The notes: generated by a model not told the origin, from the sequence alone. A stretch of 64,000 bases of DNA from Alphaproteobacteria bacterium (GCA_965225945.1 CBDDBZ010000024.1:75672-139671), one strand, 5' to 3'; counted from the first letter of the stretch, positions 4,662 to 28,370 are shown. Made by a program: numbers and translations.

Positions 4662-5315
4662 TTCGCCGTAGGGACGCGGGTTACCCCGCGCCCCCGGCAC
4701 AAAACCCGGCGTGCGGAACTACCGCACCGGGCTTCCACCTCGGATGTTTGACGGCAAAGCAACTTGCCGTACACGCTCCAGCCCCTGGGTCACGCTTACC
4801 CGGCTCGGTGTCCGGTACGTATCGGGTTGAACCATGTTCTCCTCGGCGCCTCCCCTTGGCTCCACCAACTCCGCCGTCGATTGTTCGACTTTGTTCGCCG
4901 GCTTCACGGCTACTATGGGAGGCTCAGACTTCTGGCGGCCGTTCATCGCCGGCGACGCCCCCTTGGGGCTTCCCAGCACGACCCGAGCCCACCAAGCGGT
5001 CTCGGGTAGCCACCAGATCTCCCGGTTCCCTGACAAAGTGCGTATGCGCATGCCTGGGGTCTTGGACCACGCCGGGCCGGCAAACCGCTCGCGCTAACGC
5101 GGTGCGCCATGTTGTCTTCCCCATAACGGGAGAGGGTCGACACCCGGGACGACAGCTGTTTCACGGCTCGATATCCCAGCCTACGCACACCCCTACCGAC
5201 GCTTCGCCGACACCCTCGCGGATGCCAACGCACGGCTCGGAGGCCGATGTGGTTCGCTACTCCTTCATCGCAGAGGACTTGCACCTCCAACACCTTGCCG
5301 GTTTTTCCGGCGCAC
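4662..5315 (-). ncRNA. ORF-less (internally deleted) group II intron B, 654 nt
   Basis: 5' GTGCGCCGG at 5315. RT start (MNGRQKSE...GLERVRQVA) is fused directly to the RT end, D5 GAAGCCCGGTGCGGTAGTTCCGCACGCCGGG and D6 ending CCTACGGCGAA. Confidence 0.85.
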
Positions 5316-5321
5316 CCCGCA

Positions 5322-7240
5322 GTTACGGTAGGAATGCGCATTGCTGCGCACCCCCCGCGCAGATCCGGACGTGGTCGTTGAACCATCCGGCTCCTACCTC
5401 GGGTGCTTGACGGCAAACCGCTGGTCCGGCCATGGGTGGCGGATGGAGGCGCGTGGCCACAGGATTTCGGTCATGCGCTCCAGTCGCTTCCAACTAAATC
5501 GGGCTCGCTGGGACCGGCGGCGTAGCGCCCGCATCCACCGGCGTTGCAGCCTGCGGAGGAACGCACGGATGAACCGGCCTGACCCTGGGACGGCAAAGTA
5601 GTTGAGCCAGCCATTGCAGACTCGCCCCAGCCACCTACCAACTTCCCAGATGTCGTGGTGCCAGCGCTTGCGGAGCACCTCGTCGATGCGCGCCAGGGTC
5701 CTGTTGACCCGTTTGGCGACCGGTTTGCGACCAAGCCGAAAGCGTCCTCTCAGGGTCGTCGTGCAATAGTGCGTGAGGCCCAGAAAGTCGAAAGTCTCCG
5801 GCTTGCCCACCCCGCGCTGGCGCCGGTTCAAATCCGCGAACCGGCCAAACTCCACGAGGCGGGTCTTGTCCTGGTGGAGGCTGAGACCGAACCGGGCCAG
5901 CCTCTCCCGAACGTCGCGGAGGTACCGCTCCGCATCCCGCTTGTGTTGGAACCCGACAACGATATCGTCAGCGTAACGGACGATGATCGCTTCGCCATCC
6001 GGGACGTTCGGGCGCCATTTCTTGTGGAACCACAAGTCGAGCACGTAATGCAGGAACACGTTCGCCAAGACGGGGGAGACTATTGCCCCCTGCGGCGTGC
6101 CCATACCCGTATCTGCCCATGACCCACTCTCTATGACGCCGGCGTTCAGCCATTTCCGGATCAGACGGATGACCCGCCTGTCTCCGATGCGGTGCTCTAG
6201 GAACGTGATCAACCAATCCCGCGGGATCGTGTCGAAGTACGCCCGGAGGTCTGCATCGACTATCCAGCTGACCTTGCGCCGTTCTATCCCGAAGGCCAGG
6301 GCATCGAGCGCATCGTGCGCCCCCCGCCCCGGTCGGAACCCGTAGCTGAAGCCAAGAAACACCACCTCGTAGATCGGTGTCAGGATCACATCCACAACCG
6401 CCTTCTGGACGACCTTGTCCTCCAGCGCCGCGATCCCGAGCGGTCGTGTCCCCCCGTCCGGCTTGGGTATCTCTACCCGCCGAACCGGCGGCGCCCGGTA
6501 CGCTCCCCCTCTGTGCAGGCGCCGGTGCAGGTCGAGCAGGCGCTCATCCAGACCCTCGCCGTACATGTCCCACGTAACGCCGTCGACACCGGCTGCTGCG
6601 TCCTTCTTCAATGCGAAGTAGGCCGCACCGAGCGCGTCCGGCGTAATGTGGTGGAAGAGCGCAGTGAGACGTTCCTTCGGGTTTCTCTCTGCAGCTTTCC
6701 GTATCCGGGCCGCCGCCTGTGGCACGCTTACCCGACACTGTGTTCGGCGCGTGCTTTGGCAATCCGGATTCCCCTTGGTTGAGGCCCTTTCCTCCGGCGA
6801 CTCCGCAGAAGCTCGCGCTCCCTTGTTCGCCGCCCTCACAGGTCGTACGGCCTCATCCGACTTCTTCAAACCGTTCATCATAGGCTTCGGTTTTCTCCAT
6901 TCCCTACGCGGCCCCTTTACGACAACCGGGGCAGTTTGAAGACCTCCCAGGGTCCCAACAGAAGGCGTGCGAACGTGCATGGGTTCTCTGACACCGCGGG
7001 GCTCGCCGACATCTCACCAAAACGACGCCTGCGATATTGCCTTCGACCGATCTGAAAGCCTCGGCACCCCGGACCATCGCTTTTACGGTGCTCAATAGCC
7101 CTGCCCATCCATGCCGCTACCGACGCTTCGCCTGCCCCCTCACGGGAGCCAACGCACGGCTCGCGGAGAAACGTGGTTCGGTTACTCCTTCGTTCCGGGG
7201 GACTTGCACCCCCTACCTTCTGCCAGTTCGCCTGGCGCAC
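5322..7240 (-). mobile_element. Group II intron C (class E-like), apparently intact
   Basis: 5' GTGCGCCAGG at 7240; D5 GAGCCGGATGGTTCAACGACCACGTCCGGATC; 3' CCTACCGTAAC at 5322. Confidence 0.92.
5394..6881 (-). CDS. ltrA: Group II intron reverse transcriptase/maturase, no endonuclease domain
   Basis: IPKPDG..RPLGI, SYGFRPGR, GTPQG, RYADD, FDFLG. Confidence 0.95.
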   Translation of the reverse strand: MMNGLKKSDEAVRPVRAANKGARASAESPEERASTKGNPDCQSTRRTQCRVSVPQAAARIRKAAERNPKERLTALFHHITPDALGAAYFALKKDAAAGVDGVTWDMYGEGLDERLLDLHRRLHRGGAYRAPPVRRVEIPKPDGGTRPLGIAALEDKVVQKAVVDVILTPIYEVVFLGFSYGFRPGRGAHDALDALAFGIERRKVSWIVDADLRAYFDTIPRDWLITFLEHRIGDRRVIRLIRKWLNAGVIESGSWADTGMGTPQGAIVSPVLANVFLHYVLDLWFHKKWRPNVPDGEAIIVRYADDIVVGFQHKRDAERYLRDVRERLARFGLSLHQDKTRLVEFGRFADLNRRQRGVGKPETFDFLGLTHYCTTTLRGRFRLGRKPVAKRVNRTLARIDEVLRKRWHHDIWEVGRWLGRVCNGWLNYFAVPGSGRFIRAFLRRLQRRWMRALRRRSQRARFSWKRLERMTEILWPRASIRHPWPDQRFAVKHPR

Positions 7241-9677: not shown

Positions 9678-10632
9678 CCGACACCGCTTCGAATAACGCT
9701 ATTGCCGCCGCTCACCCGCGGCCACGATCCCGCTCGCCGCAACACCATCGAGCGCGCAGGGAACCACCTGCGAGACCCGCCGGCATCGACCCGAAGTCGC
9801 CATCAAACCACCCTGCCGGTGTCGTCGCCAATCAGATCCGAGCCATCCAGCAGCGCCGGCCACCCGAGAAAGCTGGCCCGCCGCTCGCAAATCCCCATAG
9901 ACCGAGCGTGCCGCACCGCCGAGCCTAGTCCTGCCCGCGGTTTCCTCCCTTAAGCGTTGTCCGACACCTGCCGATCCAGTCCGCCGGATGCAACCCCTGC
10001 GCCTCGGCAGGTGTCCGACAACGCTTAACAGAACCGGGCGACCTGATAGCGGAAGGCATTCAGGGCCGGAGCGTTGGTCGGCACGGCGAAGTACGCGAAG
10101 TAGCCTCGCACCACCGATGCCAGCCAGCGGCCCTGCTCGGCGATTGGCTGATGCCGTCGCCGGAGGAGTTCGCGCTTGATCTCCCCGAGCTTCGCCCCCA
10201 TGCGCTTACGCCGCGTCTTGCGTCGCAGTTGGAACCGTCCCTTCCGGTCCTTCGCGCAGATGTGCGTGAAGCCCAGGAAGTCGAACGTCTCCGGCTTGCC
10301 GTCGCCTCGGCCCTTCCGACTTTTCGCGGCGTGCCGCCCAAACTCGATGAGCCGGGTTTTCTCCGCGAACAGCGCGAGGCCGAAAGCCCGCAAGCGTTCC
10401 TCCAATGCCGCCCGGAAGGCAAGCGCGTCTTCCCGGTACTCGAAGCCCACGACGAAGTCGTCCGCGTAGCGGACGATGACCATGTCGCAGTGGGTATGGC
10501 GCCGACGCCATTGGTGCGCCCACAAGTCCAGGACATAGTGCAGGTAGACGTTGGAGAGCAGCGGTGAGAGCACCGCGCCCTGTGGCGTCCCCTGCTCCGG
10601 GACCGTGAGTTTGCCATCTTGCATAATGCCGG

Positions 10633-12091
10633 CTTCTCTATCGCGTCCTCGGTCAAGCCCTTTCTGGTTACGTCATGCCATATTCCTTCTTCACGTCGTT
10701 CCGCACTGGCGGATGTTGCCGCACGGGGCTCTTGCTTCTCTTCGAGGTTGGCGCGTGGCCACCTCATGATGGGATCAGAGGATGAGGCGGTTCAATCTTT
10801 CGCGCGTCCTTGCCGCCGGTCAGCGGCAGGGTCTACCGACATTACGAACTCACCCCACCCGTCGTCCCCGTGAGGACATCTCTCTGCCTAAGCAGAACTC
10901 GTTGATCTCCTTGTCAGTACAGTCGAAGGTTCAATCCGCCTTGACGGCGTCAGCAGGGCCGTTGCTCCAGCGGAACTCGGTGCCGTCGACCCACATGCGG
11001 TGCAGAACTACGGCCAGGCGCCTCGCGACGGCGACGATGGCACGGCGCATGCCACGTCGCTGGGCCACTCGCATGCCCCACGCCTTCAGCCAGGACCATT
11101 TCCGGCCGTGGGTGAGGAGGGACTGCGCGGCCTCGTACAGCATCGTGCGGAGCATGCTGTCGCCGCACTTGGACACGCAACCATCATAGTCGATCTCGCC
11201 GGACTGGAAGCGCTTCGGCGTCAGGCCGACATGCGCGCCGACCGCCCTGGAGTGAACGAAGCGCTGCGGCTGATCGATGGTAGCCCGGTAGGTCAGCGCG
11301 ACGACCACGCCGACGCCGGGTGCCGTCATGAGCCGTCGGCAGACCGGGTCATGGCGGACCGTGTCGAGCACCATTTTGTGGAGGACCGCGAATTGCTGGC
11401 GCATCACTCGCCGGACGGTGAGCAGCGGTTCCACAATAGCGGCCAGCTTCGGAAAGTCTTCGACCAGCTCGCGGATCCGCGCCTCGTACCCGCGGGTGCT
11501 GACCGTGCCCACCTTGAGACCGAAGTTGCGCAGCGTCCCGCGTAGATCGTTCTCGACGTCGAGCAGTTTTCTCTGGAGCAGCTTGCGGCTGGTCAGCAGC
11601 ATCCGCTGCTCCTGGGCAACCAGGGTCTTCACATGCACCGGCTTGAACAGCCCGACCCGCATCATCTGGGCGATGCCGCGCGCATCGTTGCGGTCGCTCT
11701 TGTTGATCTGCTGCCCCTTGAGCAGTGCTTTCATGTGCCGAGTCTCGACGCAGACAACCGGCAGCCCGGCGGCGGCAAGACCGTTGACCAGCCATTGCGA
11801 GAGCGGACCGGCTTCGATCCCGATCCGGCCATAGGCCACGCCGATCGAGGTCAGCAGCGTGACGATGTAGTCCGGCTCGGTCGGCACTTTCCGCTCCAAC
11901 ACCACCTCGCCAACCTCGTCGACGACGCATACCGCCGTCTCCTTCACCGAAACATCCAGACCTACGAAATGTGCCATCGTCATCGCTCCTTCCTCGATGT
12001 TCGAGGTCAGGGCGACCCCGATTTATCGATCATGCGTGAAGGGGCTGCCATCATCCTGATATCATCAGCCACAGCCGCCGCGATATACCAT
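10633..12091 (-). mobile_element. IS110-family (IS1111-type) element, copy 1
   Basis: Near-identical to 21108-22566. Inserted at TGAAAG^CCGGCATT in the RT gene (KWLK|AGIM). Confidence 0.93.
10931..11983 (-). CDS. IS110-family DEDD recombinase
   Basis: GLDVS, IEAG, KSDRNDA, PGVG, GLTP...QSG. Confidence 0.95.
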   Translation of the reverse strand: MTMAHFVGLDVSVKETAVCVVDEVGEVVLERKVPTEPDYIVTLLTSIGVAYGRIGIEAGPLSQWLVNGLAAAGLPVVCVETRHMKALLKGQQINKSDRNDARGIAQMMRVGLFKPVHVKTLVAQEQRMLLTSRKLLQRKLLDVENDLRGTLRNFGLKVGTVSTRGYEARIRELVEDFPKLAAIVEPLLTVRRVMRQQFAVLHKMVLDTVRHDPVCRRLMTAPGVGVVVALTYRATIDQPQRFVHSRAVGAHVGLTPKRFQSGEIDYDGCVSKCGDSMLRTMLYEAAQSLLTHGRKWSWLKAWGMRVAQRRGMRRAIVAVARRLAVVLHRMWVDGTEFRWSNGPADAVKAD

Positions 12092-12901
12092 CTTTCAGCC
12101 ACTTGGCCGTAAGGCGGAGGAGACGCCGATCTCCGATCCGGTGCTCTAGGAACCCTCTCAGCCAGTTTTGGTCGGATGAGTCGAAGAAGCCGGATATATC
12201 GGCGTCCAGGATCCAGTTCACCTCGCGCTCGGTGATCGCCACCGCGAGCGCGTCCAGCGCGTCGTGCTGGTTGCGCCCCGGACGGAAGCCGTAGCTGAAC
12301 CCGAGGAAATCTTCCTCGTAAATCTGGTTCAGCACCGTGCTCACGGCCATATGGGCGATCTTGTCCTCCAGGGCCGCGATCCCCAATGCCCGCGCCGAGC
12401 CGTCCGACTTCGCGATGAATTGTCGCCGGCTCGGCAGAGCCCGGTAGCCGCCCCGATGGAGCCGCCCATGCAGGTTCGGGAGACGCTGCTCCAGATCCTG
12501 GCCGTACTCTTGCCACGTCATGTCGTCCACTCCGGGCGCCGCGTCGCGCTTCAGCGCCAGGTAGGAGGCCCGAAGGAGTTCGACATCGACATGGTGCAGC
12601 AGCGCGGTGAACTTTAGTTTCCCATCTCGTCTCGCCGCTTCTCGTACGCGCTCCAGCCCCTGTGACAGGCTTTCCCGACTCCGCGTCCGGCGCCTGCGTG
12701 TCAATCGGCGTTGAACATTGACCCCCTATCGGCGTGCAATGTTGACCCCTTTGGGGATGCACGGCGGAGGTCGTACAGGTAGTCCATAGGAGGGGCCCGC
12801 GCGCGGGCCGACGCGCCCACCACGCGGCTGGCGGCGGACCGCGCGTGGGAGGTTCCTGTGGGCCCACCTGGGCGACCGGGCGGCAGGTGGATCGGTTGCC
12901 T

Positions 12902-13630
12902 TTAGGACCGATTCTTGAAGCGCCAGGAGTCGTTTCCGGTCTCGATGATCTCGCAGTGGTGCGTCAGACGATCGAGGAGCGCGGTGGTCATCTTGGCGTC
13001 GCCGAAGACGGACGGCCATTCGCCGAAGGTCAGGTTGGTGGTGACGATGATCGAGGTGCGCTCGTAGAGCCGGCTGACGAGGTGGAACAGCAGCTGGCCT
13101 CCGGTTTGGGCGAAGGGCAGGTAGCCGAGCTCGTCGAGGATGACGAGGTCGCGCCGGGCCAGCTGATCGGCGAGCCGGCCCTGGCGGCCGGCGCGGGCTT
13201 CGGCCTCGAGCCGGTTGACCAGGTCGACGACGTTGAAGAAGCGGCCCCGGGCGCCATCGCGGATGCAGGCCCGCGCGATGGCGACGGCGAGATGGCTCTT
13301 GCCGGTGCCGGTGCCGCCGATCAGCACGGCGTTGCGCTGGTTGGCCAGGAAGCCGCCGACCGCCAACTCGCGGACCAGCGGCTCGTTGACCGGGGTGTCG
13401 GTGAAGTCGAAGTCGGCCAGCTCCTTGGCCAGCGGCAGCTTGGCGCCACTCATCTGGTACTTGATGGATCGCGCCTGCTTGTCGGCGATCTCGGCCTTCA
13501 ACAGCTCGCCGATGATTCGCTGCATCGGATGCTGGCGCTTGAGGCCGTCGGCGAGCACCTCGTCGAACGCGTCGCGCATGCCGGCGAGCTTGAGTGCGGC
13601 CATCATCTCCAGGACCTCATGGCGCTCCAT
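12902..13630 (-). CDS. istB: IS21 helper ATPase
   Basis: [22 protein letters not shown]. Confidence 0.95.
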
Positions 13631-15128
13631 GGCCGACCCCCCTCAAGCGGTCGTAGCGGGTGCAATCGGCCACCGGCTCAAAGCGAAGACGCAGGTTCGC
13701 GGGCGTCGGGATCGGCGCCGTCTCGGACGGCTGGCGCCGACGATTGAGGATGTTGAGCACGACGTCGGCGCTGCACACGCCGCCAGCGAGCGCCTCGGCA
13801 CAGGCGGCCTCCACCGCCGCCAGCCCATCCGCCAGCACGGCGGTGAGGATCTCGACCATCTGCCTGTCGCCGTCGTCGTGGCCGGCGAGCCGGACGCGCA
13901 CGCGACCCAGGGCGCCGGGCAGCGCCCAGTCCTTGAACGGCGCGCCGTTACGAAGCGCACCGGGCTTCCTCGCCAGCACGGGCACGTAGTGCCACGGGTC
14001 ATAGACGGTCTGGTCGCGGCCGAAGCGCCGGGCATGCTCGGCGACGATCTCGCCGTCCTGGCGGATGACGATGCGATCGGCGTAGGCATGGACCTCGACC
14101 GGACGGCCGACGGCGCGCGCCGCCACGCTGTACTTGTTGCTGTCGAAGCGCACCAGGCAGGTCTTCGACACCGACGCCGGGACCGCGTGGAAGCCGTCGA
14201 ACGGCCCGCGATAGCCGACCAGGGACGGACGCTCGTCCTCGAACACCTGCCAGACAGTCCTGTCCTTGAACACCGGGTGGGGATGACGCCGGGCGTAGGC
14301 GACGCACTGGTCCAAGAGCCAGGCGTTGAGTTCGTCGTAGGTCTTGAAGCGCAGCCGCGGGGTGAAGAACCGACCGCGGATGATCCCGACCTGGTTCTCG
14401 ACCTGCCCCTTCTCCCATCCCGCTCCCGGCGTGCATGCTGTCGGTTCGACCAGGTAGTGGCCACACATCTGCACGAAGCGCCGGTTGAACGCGCGCTCCT
14501 TGCCGATGAGGACGGTCTGCACCGCCGTCTTCATGTTGTCGTAGATGCCTCGCCGGCAGGCACCCTGGAACAGCCGGAATGCCCGGTCGTGGGCGTCGAA
14601 CACCATCTCCTGGCTCTCGCGCGGATAAGCGCGGACGAAGAACATTCGGCTGTGGCACAGCCGGACGTGCGCGACCTTGACCTTGGTCGTCACCCCCGCC
14701 AGCACCACGTACTCGTGGCTCCAGTCGAACTGATAGGCCTCGCCCGGCGAGAACACCAACGGCACATAGGTCTGCGCCGTCGATGCCGAACGGCGCCACC
14801 GCCACGCCTTGGCGTAGCGCCGCACCGCGTCGTAGCCGCCGCCATAGCCCAGACCCTCGAGGGCTTCGGAGATCCGTAGCAGCGTCAGCCGCTCCCGCTT
14901 CGACTTGGTCTCGTTGGCCTCCAGCATCCGCTCCAGCTCGGCCGTCCACGGCCCCAGCTTCGGCATCGGCTGGACCCGCCGGTCGTAGGTGAACGCCGTC
15001 GCCTGCGAACGGATCACCTTGCGCACCGTGTTGCCCGAGACCTTCACGTCCCGCACGATCTCCTTGATCGGCTTCCCCTTGACGAAATACTCCCGCCGGA
15101 TCCGCGCTATCGTCTCCACGACCAACAT
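13617..15128 (-). CDS. istA: IS21 transposase
   Basis: QFDWS, YDNMKT, EKGQVE. Confidence 0.95.
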
Positions 15129-15749
15129 CCCCCACCACCTCGTCCGCCCAAAAACGAGGTGACTTGGACTAGCCAGGCTCAGGGGGTCAAATTTGGACGC
15201 CGATCACCCCTCAACAGGGGTCAACTTTGCACGCCGTTCCACACCTGCGTTGCTGACCCACGTTCCCCTTGGCTCCGCCCCTTCCCTCCACCGGCTCCGC
15301 CGCCTCGCACAAGGCTTTGTTCGTCGGCTTCCCAGGTACTATGGGCGAATCTGACTTCTCTCGAGCGTGCGTCATCGGCTACGGCCCTTCGGGCCTTCCC
15401 GATGCGGACCGCGCAAACGCAAGGACGGCCACTCGAGAGATCTCCCGGTTTCCGCTCAGGCGATTTCCATGCGTGCGTGGGCTCTACGACCGCGCAAGGC
15501 CCTCCGAGCGCTCGCCAATGCGCGCTCGTCGGTGTGGCCTTCCCCATAGACCCACAGGGTCGGCGCCTCGAATGCGCATTTTTTGCGGCTCAATACCCAG
15601 CCCACATGTACCCCTGTCAACGCTTCGCCTCGCCCTCGCGGACCGCAGGCGCATGACTCGGGGCCGGTGTGGATGGCTAACCCTTCACCGTACGGCTCTC
15701 TCATCCGCTACTCCTCGCCGGCGATACCGGCGCACGGGTCATTCTACTT

Positions 15750-20999: not shown

Positions 21000-21215
21000 T
21001 TCGGCCGGAAGAATCTGCTGGCCCGGCTATGGGGCATGTTTCCCCGCTTAGCACCTTTTAAGGGAACGCCCGATCCTGGGGTACTCCGGACGTGGCCGGA
21101 GTGAAAGATGGTGTATCGCGGCGGCTGTGGCTGATGATATCAGGATGATGGCAGCCCCTTCACGCATGATCGTTCAATCGGGGTCGCCCTGACCTCGAAC
21201 ATCGAGGAAGGAGCG

Positions 21216-22268
21216 ATGACGATGGCACATTTCGTAGGTCTGGATGTTTCGGTGAAGGAGACGGCGGTATGCGTCGTCGACGAGGTTGGCGAGGTGGTGT
21301 TGGAGCGGAAAGTACCGACCGAGCCGGACGACATCGTCACGCTGCTGACCTCGATCGGCGTGGCCTATGGCCGGATCGGGATCGAAGCCGGTCCGCTCTC
21401 GCAATGGCTGGTCAACGGTCTTGCCGCCGCCGGGCTGCCGGTTGTCTGCGTCGAGACTCGGCACATGAAAGCACTGCTCAAGGGGCAGCAGGTCAACAAG
21501 AGCGACCGCAACGATGCGCGCGGCATCGCCCAGATGATGCGGGTCGGGCTGTTCAAGCCGGTGCATGTGAAGACCCTGGTTGCCCAGGAGCAGCGGATGC
21601 TGCTGACCAGCCGCAAGCTGCTCCAGAGAAAACTGCTCGACGTCGAGAACGATCTACGCGGGACGCTGCGCAACTTCGGTCTCAAGGTGGGCATGGTCAG
21701 CACCCGCGGGTACGAGGCGCGGATCCGCGAGCTGGTCGAAGACTTTCCGAAGCTGGCCGCTATTGTGGAACCGCTGCTCACCGTCCGGCGAGTGATGCGC
21801 CGGCAGTTCGCGGTCCTCCACAAAATGGTGCTCGACACGGTCCGCCATGACCCGGTCTGCCGACGGCTCGTGACGGCACCCGGCGTCGGCGTGGTCGTCG
21901 CGCTGACCTACCGGGCTACCATTGATCAGCCGCAGCGCTTCGTTCACTCCAGGGCGGTCGGCGCGCATGTCGGCCTGACGCCGAAGCGCTTCCAGTCCGG
22001 CGAGATCGACTATGATGGTCGCGTGTCCAAGTGCGGCGACAGCATGCTCCGCACGATGCTGTACGAGGCCGCGCAGTCCCTCCTCGCCCACGGCCGGAAA
22101 TGGTCCTGGCTGAAGGCGTGGGGCATGCGAGTGGCCCAGCGACGTGGCATGCGCCGTGCCATCGTCGCCGTCGCGAGGCGCCTGGCCGTAGTTCTGCACC
22201 GCATGTGGGTCGACGGCACCGAGTTCCGCTGGAGCAACGGCCCTGCTGACGCCGTCAAGGCGGATTGA
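21216..22268 (+). CDS. IS110-family DEDD recombinase
   Basis: 350 aa, differing from copy 1 by a few substitutions. Confidence 0.95.
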   Translation: MTMAHFVGLDVSVKETAVCVVDEVGEVVLERKVPTEPDDIVTLLTSIGVAYGRIGIEAGPLSQWLVNGLAAAGLPVVCVETRHMKALLKGQQVNKSDRNDARGIAQMMRVGLFKPVHVKTLVAQEQRMLLTSRKLLQRKLLDVENDLRGTLRNFGLKVGMVSTRGYEARIRELVEDFPKLAAIVEPLLTVRRVMRRQFAVLHKMVLDTVRHDPVCRRLVTAPGVGVVVALTYRATIDQPQRFVHSRAVGAHVGLTPKRFQSGEIDYDGRVSKCGDSMLRTMLYEAAQSLLAHGRKWSWLKAWGMRVAQRRGMRRAIVAVARRLAVVLHRMWVDGTEFRWSNGPADAVKAD

Positions 22269-22309
22269 ACCTTCGACTGTACTGACAAGGAGATCAACGA
22301 GTTCTGCTT

Positions 22310-22500
22310 AGGCAGAGAGATGTCCTCACGGGGACGACGGGTGGGGTGAGTTCGTAATGTCGGTAGACCCTGCCGCTGACCGGCGGCAAGGACGCGCGAA
22401 AGATTGAACCGCCTCATCCTCTGATCCCATCATGAGGTGGTCACGCGCCAACCTCGAAGAGAAGCAAGAGCCCCGTGCGGCAACATCAGCCAGTGCGGAA
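22310..22500 (+). ncRNA. Putative bridge/seek RNA of the IS1111-type element (ends approximate; mirrored in copy 1)
   Basis: Guide-like segments AATGTCGG and GAAAG match the target; CCATC and AGAGAAG match the donor junction. Each pair flanks a hairpin. Confidence 0.7.
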
Positions 22501-22628
22501 CGACGTGAAGAAGGAATATGGCATGATGTAACCAGAAAGGGCTTGACCAAGGCCGCGATAGAGAAGCCGACATTCGGCCGATCAGCGCCATCGCATCAGG
22601 CCATTGCCGCTCTCTTCCACTCCCCACC

Positions 22629-22950
22629 ATGCTCCGCCTGGCCCTGCTGCTCACGCTCCTCACCACCCTCACCCTGGCCGACGTCACCGGCTCGGCCCGC
22701 GTTATAGACGGCGACACGATCGAGGTGGCCGGTGAGCGCATCCGCCTGCATGGCATCGACGCGCCGGAGAGCCACCAGGCCAGCCGACGACGCGGCGTGA
22801 CATGGCTCTGTGGCGCCGAGGCGAGCAGGGCCCTCCGGGGCCTGGTAGGCGACGAGCCGGTGCGCTGCGACGAGCGGGGCCGCGATCGTTATGGCCGACT
22901 CATTTCCGTCTGTTGGGCCAACGGGATGGACGTCAACGCGAGAATGGTGG
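22629..22950 (+). pseudogene. Thermonuclease (SNase-like) protein, C-terminally truncated
   Basis: RVIDGDTI, RLHGIDAPE, DRYGR, DVNARMV, after which similarity is lost. Confidence 0.75.
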
Positions 22951-24845
22951 CCACCGCCGTTATCTCACCGAGGGGCAGAAGGGGCTTGCCATTGGTGCGA
23001 CTGGTCACTTTCCCGAGGGGGTTGCGCGCGGACCTAACCCCAAAATCGGCAGAAAACGGCCAATCATTGGAAGGTGGGCCAGCTGGCCCATCTTCAGAAC
23101 ACTCAATAGACGAATTCGGCGATGACGAAGATCACGATGACGAGGATCGCCGGCGGGACCACGGCGTATTTGATCACCGCCCGTCCGATCGCCTTCAGCT
23201 CGGCGTCGTTTGAGATCTACGTCATCAACAGCGGCAGGACCGCCCCCAGCAACGGTATCGCGACGATCAGCACTTGATCGATCCTACCAGAGGCTGGTCG
23301 CAACCAGATCCCTTGAGAACCAGATCGCCAAGGCGAGCGATATCAGCACGACCTGTAGGGAAAACATCTGGGTGACGCGAAGGGAGTTCATCATGAGTCC
23401 GCTCCTGAAAGTGTTTCAATGGGCCCGATATGGGGTCGGCCGTCGCCACCCACATCACCCAAATGGATATCAATTTTTTCTGGAATTGGTATCCCCTTCA
23501 TTGCCCCGATCCGGCCCGGGCAGGGGCATGGGGCGGCCGACCCCCGCCCCCCTCGGCGTCACGGCGATCGGGCGGGACTCCAGTAGCCAAAAATACTCCC
23601 GCTACTCGAATCCTCGGAACCACGTCCGTTGCCGTGCTTGTAGGGTGGCAGCGACCGCTGGCCCGGTCGGGTTGTCGAGACAATGCAAGGCGAGCGTGTC
23701 TCGCCGGGCATACTTGCCCACGCTACGCGCGCGACGAGGTTTTCGGGCGTGTCCCGTGCTGGGCCGAGCGGTCGCCTCGCTTGAGCGCCAAAAGGCGCCG
23801 ATCGGCAGCGGCTTTTTTGTATAATTTCCGTACGAGGGCTTTTCGGGGAGGCCGATCCCGTAAGAGGGGCAAAACCCCGGGCATTTTTTGAGCCGGGGGG
23901 ATTCTCAGCGGACTCGAAGTATGAATCAATGGGGCGATGGCCGAATCGCTCCCGGATATTGAGGCCCTGAGCCTGGACGACCTCAAGCGGTTGGTGCTCC
24001 GGCAATTGGAGGAGGTCGCGCGTCTGCGAGTGGAGAACGCGGCCTTGCGCGAGGAGATCGCGCGGCTGAAAGGGCTCAAGGGGCGGCCCAAGATCAAGCC
24101 GAGCGGCATGGAGAAGAAGGCGGCCGAACGACGCAAGACCAAGGAACGGCGCCAACAGGCCTGCCGGGGCAAGAAGAACGCGCGGCTGCGTATCGACGAG
24201 GAGCGCATCCTTGTGGCCGAGGTTCCGCCGGGCTCGCGCTTCAAGGGCACCGAGCCCTACGTGGTCCAAGATCTCTTGGTGCGCCCATATACCCTGCGCT
24301 ACCACCGGCAACGCTGGGTGACGCCGTCGGGAGAGACGGTGATAGCGGCCTTGCCAGCGGGGGTGAAGGGCCACTTCGGGTCGGAGTTGCGCCGCTTCGT
24401 GGTGGACCTCTACCACCAGGGCCAGACCACGGTGGCGCGTCTGGTGGCCTTGCTCAGCGATATCGGGGTGGCGATCTCCAAGCGCCAGGTGATGCGGCTC
24501 CTGAACGAGGACCAGGCGTGCTTCACCGGCGAGGCGGGCGCGGTTCTGCGCGCCGGCCTGGAGACCGCGGCCTGGGTCAGCGTGGACGACACCGGCGCCC
24601 GCCATCGGGCGCGCAACGGCGTGTGCACGCAGATCGGCAACGACCATTTCGCCTGGTTCGCCACCGGCTTTTCCAAGAGCCGGCGGAACTTCCTGGAACT
24701 GCTGCGGGCCGGTCACGAAGACTACCTGGTTGTGGAACGGCGTGCAAAGTTGACCCCTGTTGAGGGGTGATCGGCGTCCAAATTTGACCCCCTGAGCCTG
24801 GCTAGTCCAAGTCACCTCGTTTTTGGGCGGACGAGGTGGTGGGGG

Positions 24846-26357
24846 ATGTTGGTCGTGGAGACGATAGCGCGGATCCGGCGGGAGTATTTCGTCAAGGGGA
24901 AGCCGATCAAGGAGATCGTGCGGGACGTGAAGGTCTCGGGCAACACGGTGCGCAAGGTGATCCGTTCGCAGGCGACGGCGTTCACCTACGACCGGCGGGT
25001 CCAGCCGATGCCGAAGCTGGGGCCGTGGACGGCCGAGCTGGAGCGGATGCTGGAGGCCAACGAGACCAAGTCGAAGCGGGAGCGGCTGACGCTGCTACGG
25101 ATCTCCGAAGCCCTCGAGGGTCTGGGCTATGGCGGCGGCTACGACGCGGTGCGGCGCTACGCCAAGGCGTGGCGGTGGCGCCGTTCGGCATCGACGGCGC
25201 AGACCTATGTGCCGTTGGTGTTCTCGCCGGGCGAGGCCTATCAGTTCGACTGGAGCCACGAGTACGTGGTGCTGGCGGGGGTGACGACCAAGGTCAAGGT
25301 CGCGCACGTCCGGCTGTGCCACAGCCGAATGTTCTTCGTCCGCGCTTATCCGCGCGAGAGCCAGGAGATGGTGTTCGACGCCCACGACCGGGCATTCCGG
25401 CTGTTCCAGGGTGCCTGCCGGCGAGGCATCTACGACAACATGAAGACGGCGGTGCAGACCGTCCTCATCGGCAAGGAGCGCGCGTTCAACCGGCGCTTCG
25501 TGCAGATGTGTGGCCACTACCTGGTCGAACCGACAGCATGCACGCCGGGAGCGGGATGGGAGAAGGGGCAGGTCGAGAACCAGGTCGGGATCATCCGCGG
25601 TCGGTTCTTCACCCCGCGGCTGCGCTTCAAGACCTACGACGAACTCAACGCCTGGCTCTTGGACCAGTGCGTCGCCTACGCCCGGCGTCATCCCCACCCG
25701 GTGTTCAAGGACAGGACTGTCTGGCAGGTGTTCGAGGACGAGCGTCCGTCCCTGGTCGGCTATCGCGGGCCGTTCGACGGCTTCCACGCGGTCCCGGCGT
25801 CGGTGTCGAAGACCTGCCTGGTGCGCTTCGACAGCAACAAGTACAGCGTGGCGGCGCGCGCCGTCGGCCGTCCGGTCGAGGTCCATGCCTACGCCGATCG
25901 CATCGTCATCCGCCAGGACGGCGAGATCGTCGCCGAGCATGCCCGGCGCTTCGGCCGCGACCAGACCGTCTATGACCCGTGGCACTACGTGCCCGTGCTG
26001 GCGAGGAAGCCCGGTGCGCTTCGTAACGGCGCGCCGTTCAAGGACTGGGCGCTGCCCGGCGCCCTGGGTCGCGTGCGCGTCCGGCTCGCCGGCCACGACG
26101 ACGGCGACAGGCAGATGGTCGAGATCCTCACCGCCGTGCTGGCGGATGGGCTGGCGGCGGTGGAGGCCGCCTGTGCCGAGGCGCTCGCTGGCGGCGTGTG
26201 CAGCGCCGACGTCGTGCTCAACATCCTCAATCGTCGGCGCCAGCCGTCCGAGACGGCGCCGATCCCGACGCCCGCGAACCTGCGTCTTCGCTTTGAGCCG
26301 GTGGCCGATTGCACCCGCTACGACCGCTTGAGGGGGGTCGGCCATGGAGCGCCATGA
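24846..26357 (+). CDS. istA: IS21 transposase
   Basis: Identical protein to 13617-15128. Confidence 0.95.
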
Positions 26358-27072
26358 GGTCCTGGAGATGATGGCCGCACTCAAGCTCGCCGGCATGCGC
26401 GACGCGTTCGACGAGGTGCTCGCCGACGGCCTCAAGCGCCAGCATCCGATGCAGCGAATCATCGGCGAGCTGTTGAAGGCCGAGATCGCCGACAAGCAGG
26501 CGCGATCCATCAAGTACCAGATGAGTGGCGCCAAGCTGCCGCTGGCCAAGGAGCTGGCCGACTTCGACTTCACCGACACCCCGGTCAACGAGCCGCTGGT
26601 CCGCGAGTTGGCGGTCGGCGGCTTCCTGGCCAACCAGCGCAACGCCGTGCTGATCGGCGGCACCGGCACCGGCAAGAGCCATCTCGCCGTCGCCATCGCG
26701 CGGGCCTGCATCCGCGATGGCGCCCGGGGCCGCTTCTTCAACGTCGTCGACCTGGTCAACCGGCTCGAGGCCGAAGCCCGCGCCGGCCGCCAGGGCCGGC
26801 TCGCCGATCAGCTGGCCCGGCGCGACCTCGTCATCCTCGACGAGCTCGGCTACCTGCCCTTCGCCCAAACCGGAGGCCAGCTGCTGTTCCACCTCGTCAG
26901 CCGGCTCTACGAGCGCACCTCGATCATCGTCACCACCAACCTGACCTTCGGCGAATGGCCGTCCGTCTTCGGCGACGCCAAGATGACCACCGCGCTCCTC
27001 GATCGTCTGACGCACCACTGCGAGATCATCGAGACCGGAAACGACTCCTGGCGCTTCAAGAATCGGTCCTAA
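26344..27072 (+). CDS. istB: IS21 helper ATPase
   Basis: Identical protein to 12902-13630. Confidence 0.95.
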
Positions 27073-28370
27073 AGGCAACCGATCCACCTGCCGCCCGGTC
27101 GCCCAGGTGGGCCCACAGGAACCTCCCACGCGCGGTCCGCCGCCAGCCGCGTGGTGGGCGCGTCGGCCCGCGCGCGGGCCCCTCCTATGGACTACCTGTA
27201 CGACCTCCGCCGTGCATCCCCAAAGGGGTCAACATTGCACGCCGATAGGGGGTCAATGTTCAACGCCGATTGACAACCTGGTCAATGACGCGGCCTTGGC
27301 CTACATGCGCGAACGCCGTCTCGCCGGCCCCCTCGTCGCCCGTTTGGAAACGGCCCGGGTGCGCCGCTTTGCCGACGAGAGGATCTGGATGAGCCACCTG
27401 AAGGCCTTGGGGATCACGGACCTCGAGGTCCAGCCCGATCCGGTCAAGATCGCCACCGAGGGCGCGCTCTGGGGCTCCCTTACTGACCACGGCCTGCTCA
27501 AAGACAGCGTCATCCTCAGCGACGACGCCGGCCAGTTCAACGTCGGCCATCACGCGCTCTGCTGGGTCCACGCCGAGCGCTTGGTCCATAAGCTGGATTG
27601 TTTCACTCAGGCGCAGGCGCAAGCGAAAGAACGGATCCGGACCCGGATCTGGTGGCTCTACGCGGACCTCAAGGCCTACCGCGAAGACCCGCGCCGGCGA
27701 CGAAGACGCGAGCTTCGCCGGCGCTTCGACGATATCTTCACCAGGCGCACCGGCTTCGCCACCCTCGATCGCCTGCTCGCCCGGCTCCATGGCAACAAGG
27801 AAGAGTTGCTGCTGGTGCTCGAGCGCCCCGAGGTGCCGCTCAACACCAACGGCTCGGAGAACGACATCCGCTGCCAGGTGACCCGCCGCAAGATCTCCGG
27901 CGGCACCCGATCCGAGGCCGGCCGCGAGGCCCGCGACGCCTTCCTCGGCCTCATGAAGACCTGCGCCAAACAGGGCATCTCCTTCTGGGACTACCTCGGC
28001 GACCGCCTCGGGGTCCCCGATGCCCCGCCTATCGCCTACCTCCCCGATCTGATCAGGCAGCGCGCCGCCTCAGCCTGAGTGCCCGGGGTTCTGCCCCTAT
28101 TACGAAACGGCTAGGCCTTTGGGTTTTCTAGTAGGCCTATAGTAGGCAAGAAGTCGAAGCATCCGGCCAAGGTTGCTGGTGGCCTTCGTAGGGGCGGGAA
28201 TCGCGCCGAGAGCATGGTCCCCGCCGGAGTCCTGGCGCCCTTTACACGAAAACGGCTCATACAGCGTCATTCGGGTTGCCTCAGGTAGGTGGGGTGCAGA
28301 AGGGCCCGGGATGCCTCTTTGCAGCTCCTGAAGTGGGGTATAGGCCCCTTGGATGGAGAGGGGGCCGTGT

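Follow-up and report, generated by a model that had tools for sequence, protein, structure and literature searches.

We found that a 64,000-nucleotide stretch of DNA from an Alphaproteobacteria bacterium (hereafter the window) carries two copies of an IS1111-type RNA-guided insertion sequence, a further member of the kind published in 2024 under the names seekRNA and bridge RNA. We consider it very probable that this is an active, or at least recently active, element of the IS1111 group that is directed to its sites by RNA. The anatomy of the element, the fold of the RNA encoded in its right end with covariation in its stems, the matches between the loops of this RNA and DNA, and the covariation of the target loop with natural insertion sites were all observed. 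A sequence-only reading of the window had proposed the element as a candidate programmable recombinase, which is a fair description, yet of one member of a very large known class.

Copy 2 of the element is 1459 bp long (21108-22566, plus strand) and comprises a 108-nt left end, a 350-aa open reading frame (21216-22268) and a 298-nt right end. The dinucleotide AG closes both the left flank and the element, which makes the ends of this copy ambiguous by 2 nt; as left flank and element share nothing but AG at their ends, AG constitutes the core, with no other duplication. Across 11 insertions in the genome to which the window belongs, AG alone is present at both junctions, i.e., the element inserts without target duplication beyond the core. 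The 9-bp subterminal inverted repeats (sTIR), TATCGCGGC on the left (21114-21122, plus strand) and its complement GCCGCGATA on the right (22552-22560, plus strand), each lie 6 nt in from the respective end, and TATCGCGGC is also present in ~28 relatives. These short terminal extensions, the repeat length within the 7-17 bp range given for the group (Durrant et al. 2024, PMC11208160) and the longer non-coding region downstream of the transposase gene (298 nt vs 108 nt upstream) are those of the IS1111 group. Copy 1 (10633-12091, minus strand, 1459 bp) is 99% identical to copy 2, contains its own RNA core (10722-10872, minus strand), is flanked by CTGAAAG (12092-12098) and CCGGCATT (10625-10632), and interrupts the reverse-transcriptase (RT) open reading frame of a group II intron. 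When searched separately, the peptides flanking copy 1 map to neighboring positions in intact paralogous RTs of group II introns, with exactly the two expected codons between them, and the junction is therefore exact. The empty sites proposed by the sequence-only reading, GAGTGAAAG^CCGACATTC for copy 2 and GGCTGAAAG^CCGGCATTA for copy 1, are those that the flanks give, the latter being fixed independently by this RT alignment.

The gene at 21216-22268 on the plus strand encodes a transposase/recombinase of 350 aa, which is recognized by the Pfam profiles PF01548 (DEDD_Tnp_IS110, E 3.5e-19) and PF02371 (Transposase_20, E 2.1e-19) and by the NCBIfam model NF033542 ("IS110 family RNA-guided transposase", 245.5 bits vs a cutoff of 140), and by alignment to the IS621 and ISCro4 chains. 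It displays the architecture of the IS110 superfamily, namely a RuvC-like DEDD domain and a C-terminal Tnp domain with a Ser-Gly motif. The predicted catalytic residues D10, E57, D97 and D100 lie in GxD, IEA and DxxD motifs and align with those of IS621 and ISCro4, in an N-terminal stretch of the alignment that is weak by itself and on which this placement is based; the catalytic residues of IS621 are named in Hiraizumi et al. 2024 (PMC11208158). S261, in the segment GLTPKRFQSG (residues 253-262), aligns with the RYESG of IS621. Both this segment and the length of the protein agree with IS1111 elements, which are described as featuring sTIRs, a downstream non-coding region and a transposase of 330-350 aa with the motif GL-P----S(t)G (Siddiquee et al. 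2024, PMC11187229).

The right end encodes a bridge/seek RNA core of ~151 nt (22327-22477, plus strand) closed by the stem CACGGGG/CCCCGUG. Upstream of it lies a small hairpin, UCUGC-UUAG-GCAGA (22303-22316, plus strand), which is replaced by a different hairpin in relatives; both were read from the alignments and are not counted below. The fold was modeled on an alignment of 57 distinct RNAs of relatives, from which we left out identical RNAs, L061 (3′ half replaced), L102 (truncated), L070 (anchor without a match) and four loci cut by contig ends (L056, L069, L097 and L109). RNAalifold returned a long stem around a large internal loop with a distal hairpin, followed by a second hairpin. Its 29 modeled pairs are paired in 97.6% of the cells vs 33-52% when the partners are slid; 15 of the 29 show compensatory changes on both sides, and 0 of 500 shuffles reach any of five measures. 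The closing stem is fully paired in 56 of the 57 RNAs, a count obtained by manual re-reading in the right register since the stem is misaligned by one column between subgroups, and is doubly compensated in two. The distal hairpin of the target-binding loop (22369-22391, plus strand; helices 2 and 3) has compensatory changes in 6 of 7 pairs, and the hairpin of the donor-binding loop (22434-22455, plus strand; helix 4) in 4 of 7, with 99.7% of its cells paired; both had been noticed from the single sequence, whose minimum free energy structure (22323-22479) recovers all alignment-derived helices, with a folding z-score of only -2.2. G:U pairs are frequent, which fits an RNA of the plus strand.

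The putative guides occupy defined places in this fold. The right target guide AAUGUCGG (22356-22363) and the left target guide GCGAAAG (22396-22402) are the two sides of the first internal loop, and the right donor guide AUCCCAUC (22424-22431) and the left donor guide AGAGAAG (22458-22464), all on the plus strand, border the second hairpin. The sequence-only reading had located AATGTCGG at 22356-22363, GAAAG at 22398-22402, CCATC at 22427-22431 and AGAGAAG at 22458-22464, and had taken them for target- and donor-binding loops: the positions are correct, and the two pairs of segments do occupy two internal loops of a conserved fold, in the published IS1111 order and strand sense. Rfam 15 gave no match at the gathering threshold in the whole window, nor at E up to 10 in 22200-22620, which says little, as there is no sign that Rfam 15 contains models for such RNAs. 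A promoter scan of 21000-22700 was negative for sigma-70-type promoters on both strands and for terminator-like sites on the plus strand. Four metatranscriptome runs (X1, X11, X17 and X18) cover the element as assembled contigs, which show neither ends, strand nor level and might stem from DNA in such libraries; one contig of X1 spans the whole element, and a 272-nt contig of X17 (22271-22542) and a 258-nt piece of X18 (22320-22577), which as contigs cannot show transcription, cover the RNA region.

The target loop corresponds to the DNA on both sides of the insertion point. Copy 2 has CCGACATT as its right target half (22567-22574, plus strand), of which the right target guide is the reverse complement, a perfect match; the base that follows the guide, U22364, is able to wobble-pair with the G of the core. 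The left target guide has the sense of the top strand of the left flank and core, and would hence pair with the bottom strand; the left target half of copy 2 (LT plus core AG), GTGAAAG (21101-21107, plus strand), departs from it by a single C:A mismatch at -6. At copy 1, there is a U:G wobble at right position 4 and mismatches at -6 and -7 on the left. The sequence-only reading had allowed one mismatch at copy 1; the count is instead three departures there, two of them at the far end of the left guide, and one left-guide mismatch at copy 2. The window contains the arrangement AATGTCGG-N25-45-GCGAAAG two times, one in each copy, vs 0.00 expected from 100 shuffles.

Across the 11 insertions in the element's own genome, the left flank ends in GAAAG in ten and in GATAG in the remaining one, and in five it ends in GCGAAAG, as the guide itself reads; like the guide, most sites have C at -6. 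On the right, seven insertions are flanked by CCGACATT, three by CCGGCATT (one intron site three times, with the U:G wobble) and one by ACGACATT. A proposed target consensus, TGAAAGCCGRCATT, is found literally in only 4 of these 11 insertions and thus did not hold as written, whereas GAAAG^CCGRCATT is present in 9. The own assembly retains no perfect 15-nt empty site, and in four of its seven one-mismatch sites the core is changed to AC. Several targets fall within a small intergenic repeat family of ~8 recognizable copies, four of which are occupied, the empty ones having imperfect sites. A paralogous intron site, CTGAACG^CCGGCGTC, with the core CG and three differences in the right half, is unoccupied. 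Some of the own-genome targets are followed by an inverted copy (CGAAAGCCGAC ... GTCGGCTTTCG).

To extend the comparison beyond this genome, we scanned one genome per species and obtained 80 loci with 64-94% protein identity, which fall into two subgroups: one of ~80% identity with the same sTIR, and one of ~66% identity with the sTIR TAATCGGCC. Same-family genomes contributed little: of 33 searched, five, including the window's own, had a hit at the cutoff, and the best hit outside the own genome was only 47% identical and hence of no use for covariation. Together with 10 own copies (the interrupted one left out), the loci, positioned by constant anchors, give 90 insertions, of which 75 were usable on the right (guide and flank) and 78 on the left. 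Against shuffling controls that preserve base composition and not relatedness (guide and target repeat are common to copies within one genome), the 51 unique guide-flank pairs on the right score 6.57 of 8 in Watson-Crick matches (7.00 with wobble) vs 4.68 (sd 0.14), and the 68 unique pairs on the left, at positions -3 to -9, 4.43 of 7 vs 3.03 (sd 0.11), with 0 of 5000 shuffles in each case. Using one consensus flank per guide, which lessens this weakness without removing it, 26 right guides score 6.65 of 8 vs 4.09 (sd 0.24) and 28 left 5-mer guides 3.82 of 5 vs 2.10 (sd 0.18), and 0 of 10,000 shuffles reach the observed values. Among the 51 right pairs, three misfits score 1-2 of 8 and three score 5 of 8; guides and sites agree least at right position 8, and right position 2 and left positions -5 to -7 also show low agreement. 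The loop segments are complementary to both target strands and covary with the natural sites, so that the comparison of guides and flanks across homologs, which the sequence-only reading had put forward as a check, bears out the target loop over 26 right and 28 left guide types. Many targets of the ~66% subgroup are palindromic, with ATGTCCG ~14 nt before the insertion point and a right flank starting with CGGACAT, and there the element lands just before the 3′ arm of the repeat hairpin.

By analogy with the published mechanism of the family, the region downstream of the DEDD/serine recombinase gene would be transcribed on the strand of the gene to give the ~150-nt structured RNA with its two internal loops, which would be bound by the recombinase. 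To the right of the insertion point, the top strand is predicted to pair with the 5′ side of the target loop, AAUGUCGG, and to the left, core AG included, the bottom strand with its 3′ side, GCGAAAG. In the donor loop, the 5′ side AUCCCAUC would pair with the left end of the element and the 3′ side AGAGAAG with the right end and core, the two ends being joined in an excised circle (AGAGAAG^ATGG). The RNA-bound recombinase would then exchange strands at the common AG core, placing the element at GCGAA-AG^CCGACATT with no duplication beyond the core. The transcription and binding of the RNA, the circular intermediate, the strand-exchange chemistry and the re-programmability of the guides are all features that we infer from this published mechanism.

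The donor half of this proposal is where an alternative fares best. AGAGAAG is identical to the last 7 nt of the element, and GATGGGAT, the reverse complement of the right donor guide, agrees at 7 of 8 positions with the left end ATGGTAT preceded by the core G, the mismatch being at element position 5 (G+ATGG-x-AT). The right guides cover the core poorly, by a wobble in the target loop and by only the G in the donor loop. Left-end position 6 varies jointly with the guide: 8 of the 10 own copies have ATGGTA with a guide U, and the ~80% subgroup has ATGGTG with a guide C. All else in the donor loop and the element ends is invariant or nearly so over the 90 insertions, so that covariation supports the pairing at this one position only. 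The donor reading thus appears to rest mainly on the complementarity, the position in the fold and a layout, with the 5′ segment for the right half and the 3′ segment for the left, like that of the target loop. It is conceivable, if rather unlikely in our judgment, that the RNA guides the choice of target only, as a seekRNA in the narrow sense, with the protein recognizing the ends through the sTIR and the CCAUC and AGAGAAG matches being structural or incidental. The near-invariance of the donor segments and ends is compatible with this, as is the shortness of CCATC, a 5-mer for which simple arithmetic gives ~0.3 chance occurrences in 298 nt; moreover, end recognition may differ in IS1111 through the sTIR, and an 82-nt seekRNA is reported to be enough for ISEc11 (both Siddiquee et al. 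2024, PMC11187229). Against it, the donor segments sit in an internal loop laid out as the target loop is (5′ segment the reverse complement of the right half, 3′ segment in the sense of the left half), they flank the hairpin with compensatory changes in 4 of 7 pairs, the match covers 7 of 8 positions, one of which covaries, and donor complementarity is reported in the inspected IS1111-group bridge RNAs (Durrant et al. 2024, PMC11208160). We therefore favor a bridge RNA with both a target and a donor loop.

Near the right end, the -35-like hexamer TTGACC (22543-22548, plus strand), 18 nt from the end, could form half of a circle-junction promoter, as the sequence-only reading had suggested. 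Of the 66 relatives with both ends located, 65 have TTGAC close to the right end, at a distance that differs by subgroup (18 vs 21 nt). At a 17-nt spacing across the circle junction, the -10 partner would be GATGGT or GAAGAT, each matching TATAAT in 3 of 6 positions (A2, T6); the promoter is thus possible, with a -10 partner that would be weak. We also considered handshake guides as in IS621: the first two bases of the window element recur in its RNA as a constant AU behind the left target guide. We dropped them as inconsistent across the two subgroups.

In the own assembly, full copies number 10 and share 97.6-99.3% identity with copy 2; besides these, there is a copy disrupted by other insertions and a 3′ fragment of 262 nt. 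This solo fragment (C37:60701-60962) lies next to a canonical right half-site and retains the RNA core in full together with the right end, but has no transposase gene. We judge it distinctly unlikely that the family mechanism applies and the copies are now inactive relics, multiplied mainly by host duplication, e.g., of the group II intron in which three of them reside. In favor of this, the 30-nt flanks of three of the 11 insertions, in one intron subfamily, are identical, one copy is interrupted and another is a fragment. Set against this, the eight other insertions are at different sites, the frames are open in all 10 full copies, the catalytic residues are intact, and the own copies differ pairwise at only 5-52 positions, the two complete intron copies being 33 positions apart, which is more than separates them from some copies elsewhere. 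An active or recently active element remains our preferred reading, and in terms of annotation, a single site-specific element explains both the flanking "repeats" and the broken group II intron genes of this genome.

It is very improbable that the non-coding region is a DNA- or mRNA-level feature (a transposase-binding site, terminator or 3′ UTR stabilizer) whose resemblance to the flanks reflects chance or the footprint of past insertion while the protein picks the site: the lack of an Rfam match, the modest single-sequence z-score and RNA-library evidence in the form of contigs only would suit it, whereas the guide-flank covariation over 26 and 28 guide types with none of 10,000 shuffles reaching it, the stems kept paired through G:U and compensatory changes, the empty paralogous intron site with its CG core and three right-half differences, and a protein from a family experimentally shown to be RNA-guided (PMC11187229, PMC11208160) all speak against it.

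Three copies in this data set deviate in ways that concern the RNA or the right end. L009 (own genome, C29:43159-44614) has a mosaic non-coding region, with its differences clustered at element positions ~1138 to 1316, and a different target loop, with a right guide of the CAGACATT type and the left guide GCGCAAAAG; it shares its intron site with two other copies, and its own guide fits that site worse. It looks as if either variants have swapped the guide module or the assembly includes a second strain. L102 ends at the internal AGAGAAG, i.e., the left donor guide, and lacks the last ~150 nt of the right end; directly after this AGAGAAG comes CGGACATC, 7 of whose 8 positions fit the right guide of L102. 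The truncation looks like the product of either the use of this internal motif as the end or a deletion between the two 7-nt repeats. L081 has the final 41 nt of its right end in two tandem copies, followed by a right flank that matches the guide in 8 of 8 positions. Based on the at least 26 right-guide and 28 left-guide variants at matching sites, the mosaic copy at C29:43159 and L102, we offer, as a possibility that we hold with considerable doubt, a joint reading in which the clade amounts to a natural guide-reprogramming experiment: guide modules may swap by recombination, the perfect sites would all be filled, and the DNA of the left donor guide may be a cryptic right end that gives rise to truncated derivatives. 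If this were true, the natural mismatch pattern per position would be a ready-made specificity map for an IS1111-type recombinase.

The surroundings of the element are rich in other mobile DNA. An IS21-type element with an rve domain and a Mu-transposase C-terminal domain is present in two inverted, 100% identical copies of 2563 nt (12681-15243 and 24731-27293); one adjoins the intron carrying copy 1, and the other apparently divides a transposase gene of the IS66 family into two parts (23937-24770 and 27107-28078). Rfam group II intron domains match on the minus strand at 1179-1469, 5057-5281, 6982-7206 and 15480-15701, and the own genome has some twenty related RT genes. The IS1111-type element is at the same codon in all three copies of one RT subfamily and absent from the ~62%-identical paralogs. 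A second IS110-family element of the own genome (C30, C11, C13 and C16; L051-L055), with 42-45% protein identity, has ~five copies, and every match contains in-frame stop codons (TAG, in one also TGA).

Among the known systems, ISPpu9 and ISPpu10 of Pseudomonas putida (PMC12288879; bioRxiv 10.64898/2026.03.19.712850) are likewise IS110-family elements that insert into repeated extragenic sequences. ISPpu9 is described as having an sRNA gene downstream of its transposase gene along with extra solo copies of the sRNA, to which the solo fragment C37:60701-60962 may be compared; both elements differ from that of the window in host and sequence. IS621 (Durrant et al. 2024, PMC11208160; Hiraizumi et al. 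2024, PMC11208158) is similar in its DEDD and serine recombinase, in its target- and donor-binding loops, in the pairing of left guides with the bottom strand and right guides with the top strand, and in a dinucleotide core common to target and donor. It belongs, however, to the IS110 group, in which the RNA lies in the left end upstream of the gene and the sTIR is only 2-3 bp long. Further differences, as far as those reports describe IS621, are its CT core (AG in the window element, on the strand of the gene), the order of the guides (right before left in the window element, unlike IS621) and the coverage of the core, which extends to all four guides of IS621 and only partly to the right guides of the window element. 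The protein similarity to IS621 is weak (E 1.4e-12) and lies mostly in the C-terminal domain.

Closer in layout are ISEc11, ISPa11, ISKpn4 and ISPst6 (Siddiquee et al. 2024, PMC11187229), which share with the window element a long non-coding region downstream of the transposase gene, the sTIR, a protein of 330-350 aa with GL-P----SG, and two short target matches in the RNA, that to the top strand being 5′ of that to the bottom strand. A further point in common is that relatives are naturally retargeted through replacement of the target-match segments. The targets differ, those in the window's genome being an intergenic repeat of low copy number and the RT gene of a group II intron, and the transposase is only distantly related to this type, the IS110-family matches on enterobacterial plasmids being ~30% identical. 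A second, donor-matching loop is evident in the window element, whereas the available part of that paper describes none for these seekRNAs. More generally, the order of a top-strand match 5′ of a bottom-strand match is given for seekRNAs by Siddiquee et al. (2024, PMC11187229), and the strand rules for the four guides, together with bridge RNAs predicted in the right end of 93% of IS1111 elements, by Durrant et al. (2024, PMC11208160); as judged from its sequence, the window element appears to possess all of these published IS1111 seek/bridge RNA features.

The transposase looks to belong near the ISAzs32/ISMno22 cluster, a clade already surveyed in 2024. ISAzs32, ISMex9, ISMno22 and ISMpo4 (ISfinder names) are grouped in one row of Supplementary Table 1 of Durrant et al. 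(2024, PMC11208160), where their RuvC- and Tnp-domain strings are, as compared by eye only, about three quarters identical to those of the window's transposase, and ISAzs32 is among the six elements for which that study examined and depicted the loops of the bridge RNA. An ISMno22 family transposase ("IS110-like element") on the Methylobacterium nodulans plasmid pMNOD02 is 52% identical over 343 aa, and its downstream region has the same constant RNA motifs, GGGACGAUGG, AGAUUG, CCCCAUCAUG and GAAGAGAAGC. It differs in its guides and target (a right guide of the GGACTCTCA type), in its ends and in its sTIR, and its right guide matches the flank only when 3 nt are skipped after AGAGAAG. RNA-guided IS110/IS1111 recombinases are under development as programmable DNA-insertion tools; compared with those already published, the element of the window adds nothing new in kind and brings a guide-to-site table of 11 sites in its own genome and ~75 in relatives, with which, given its covariation-supported fold, it could serve as a well-characterized test candidate of the IS1111 group.
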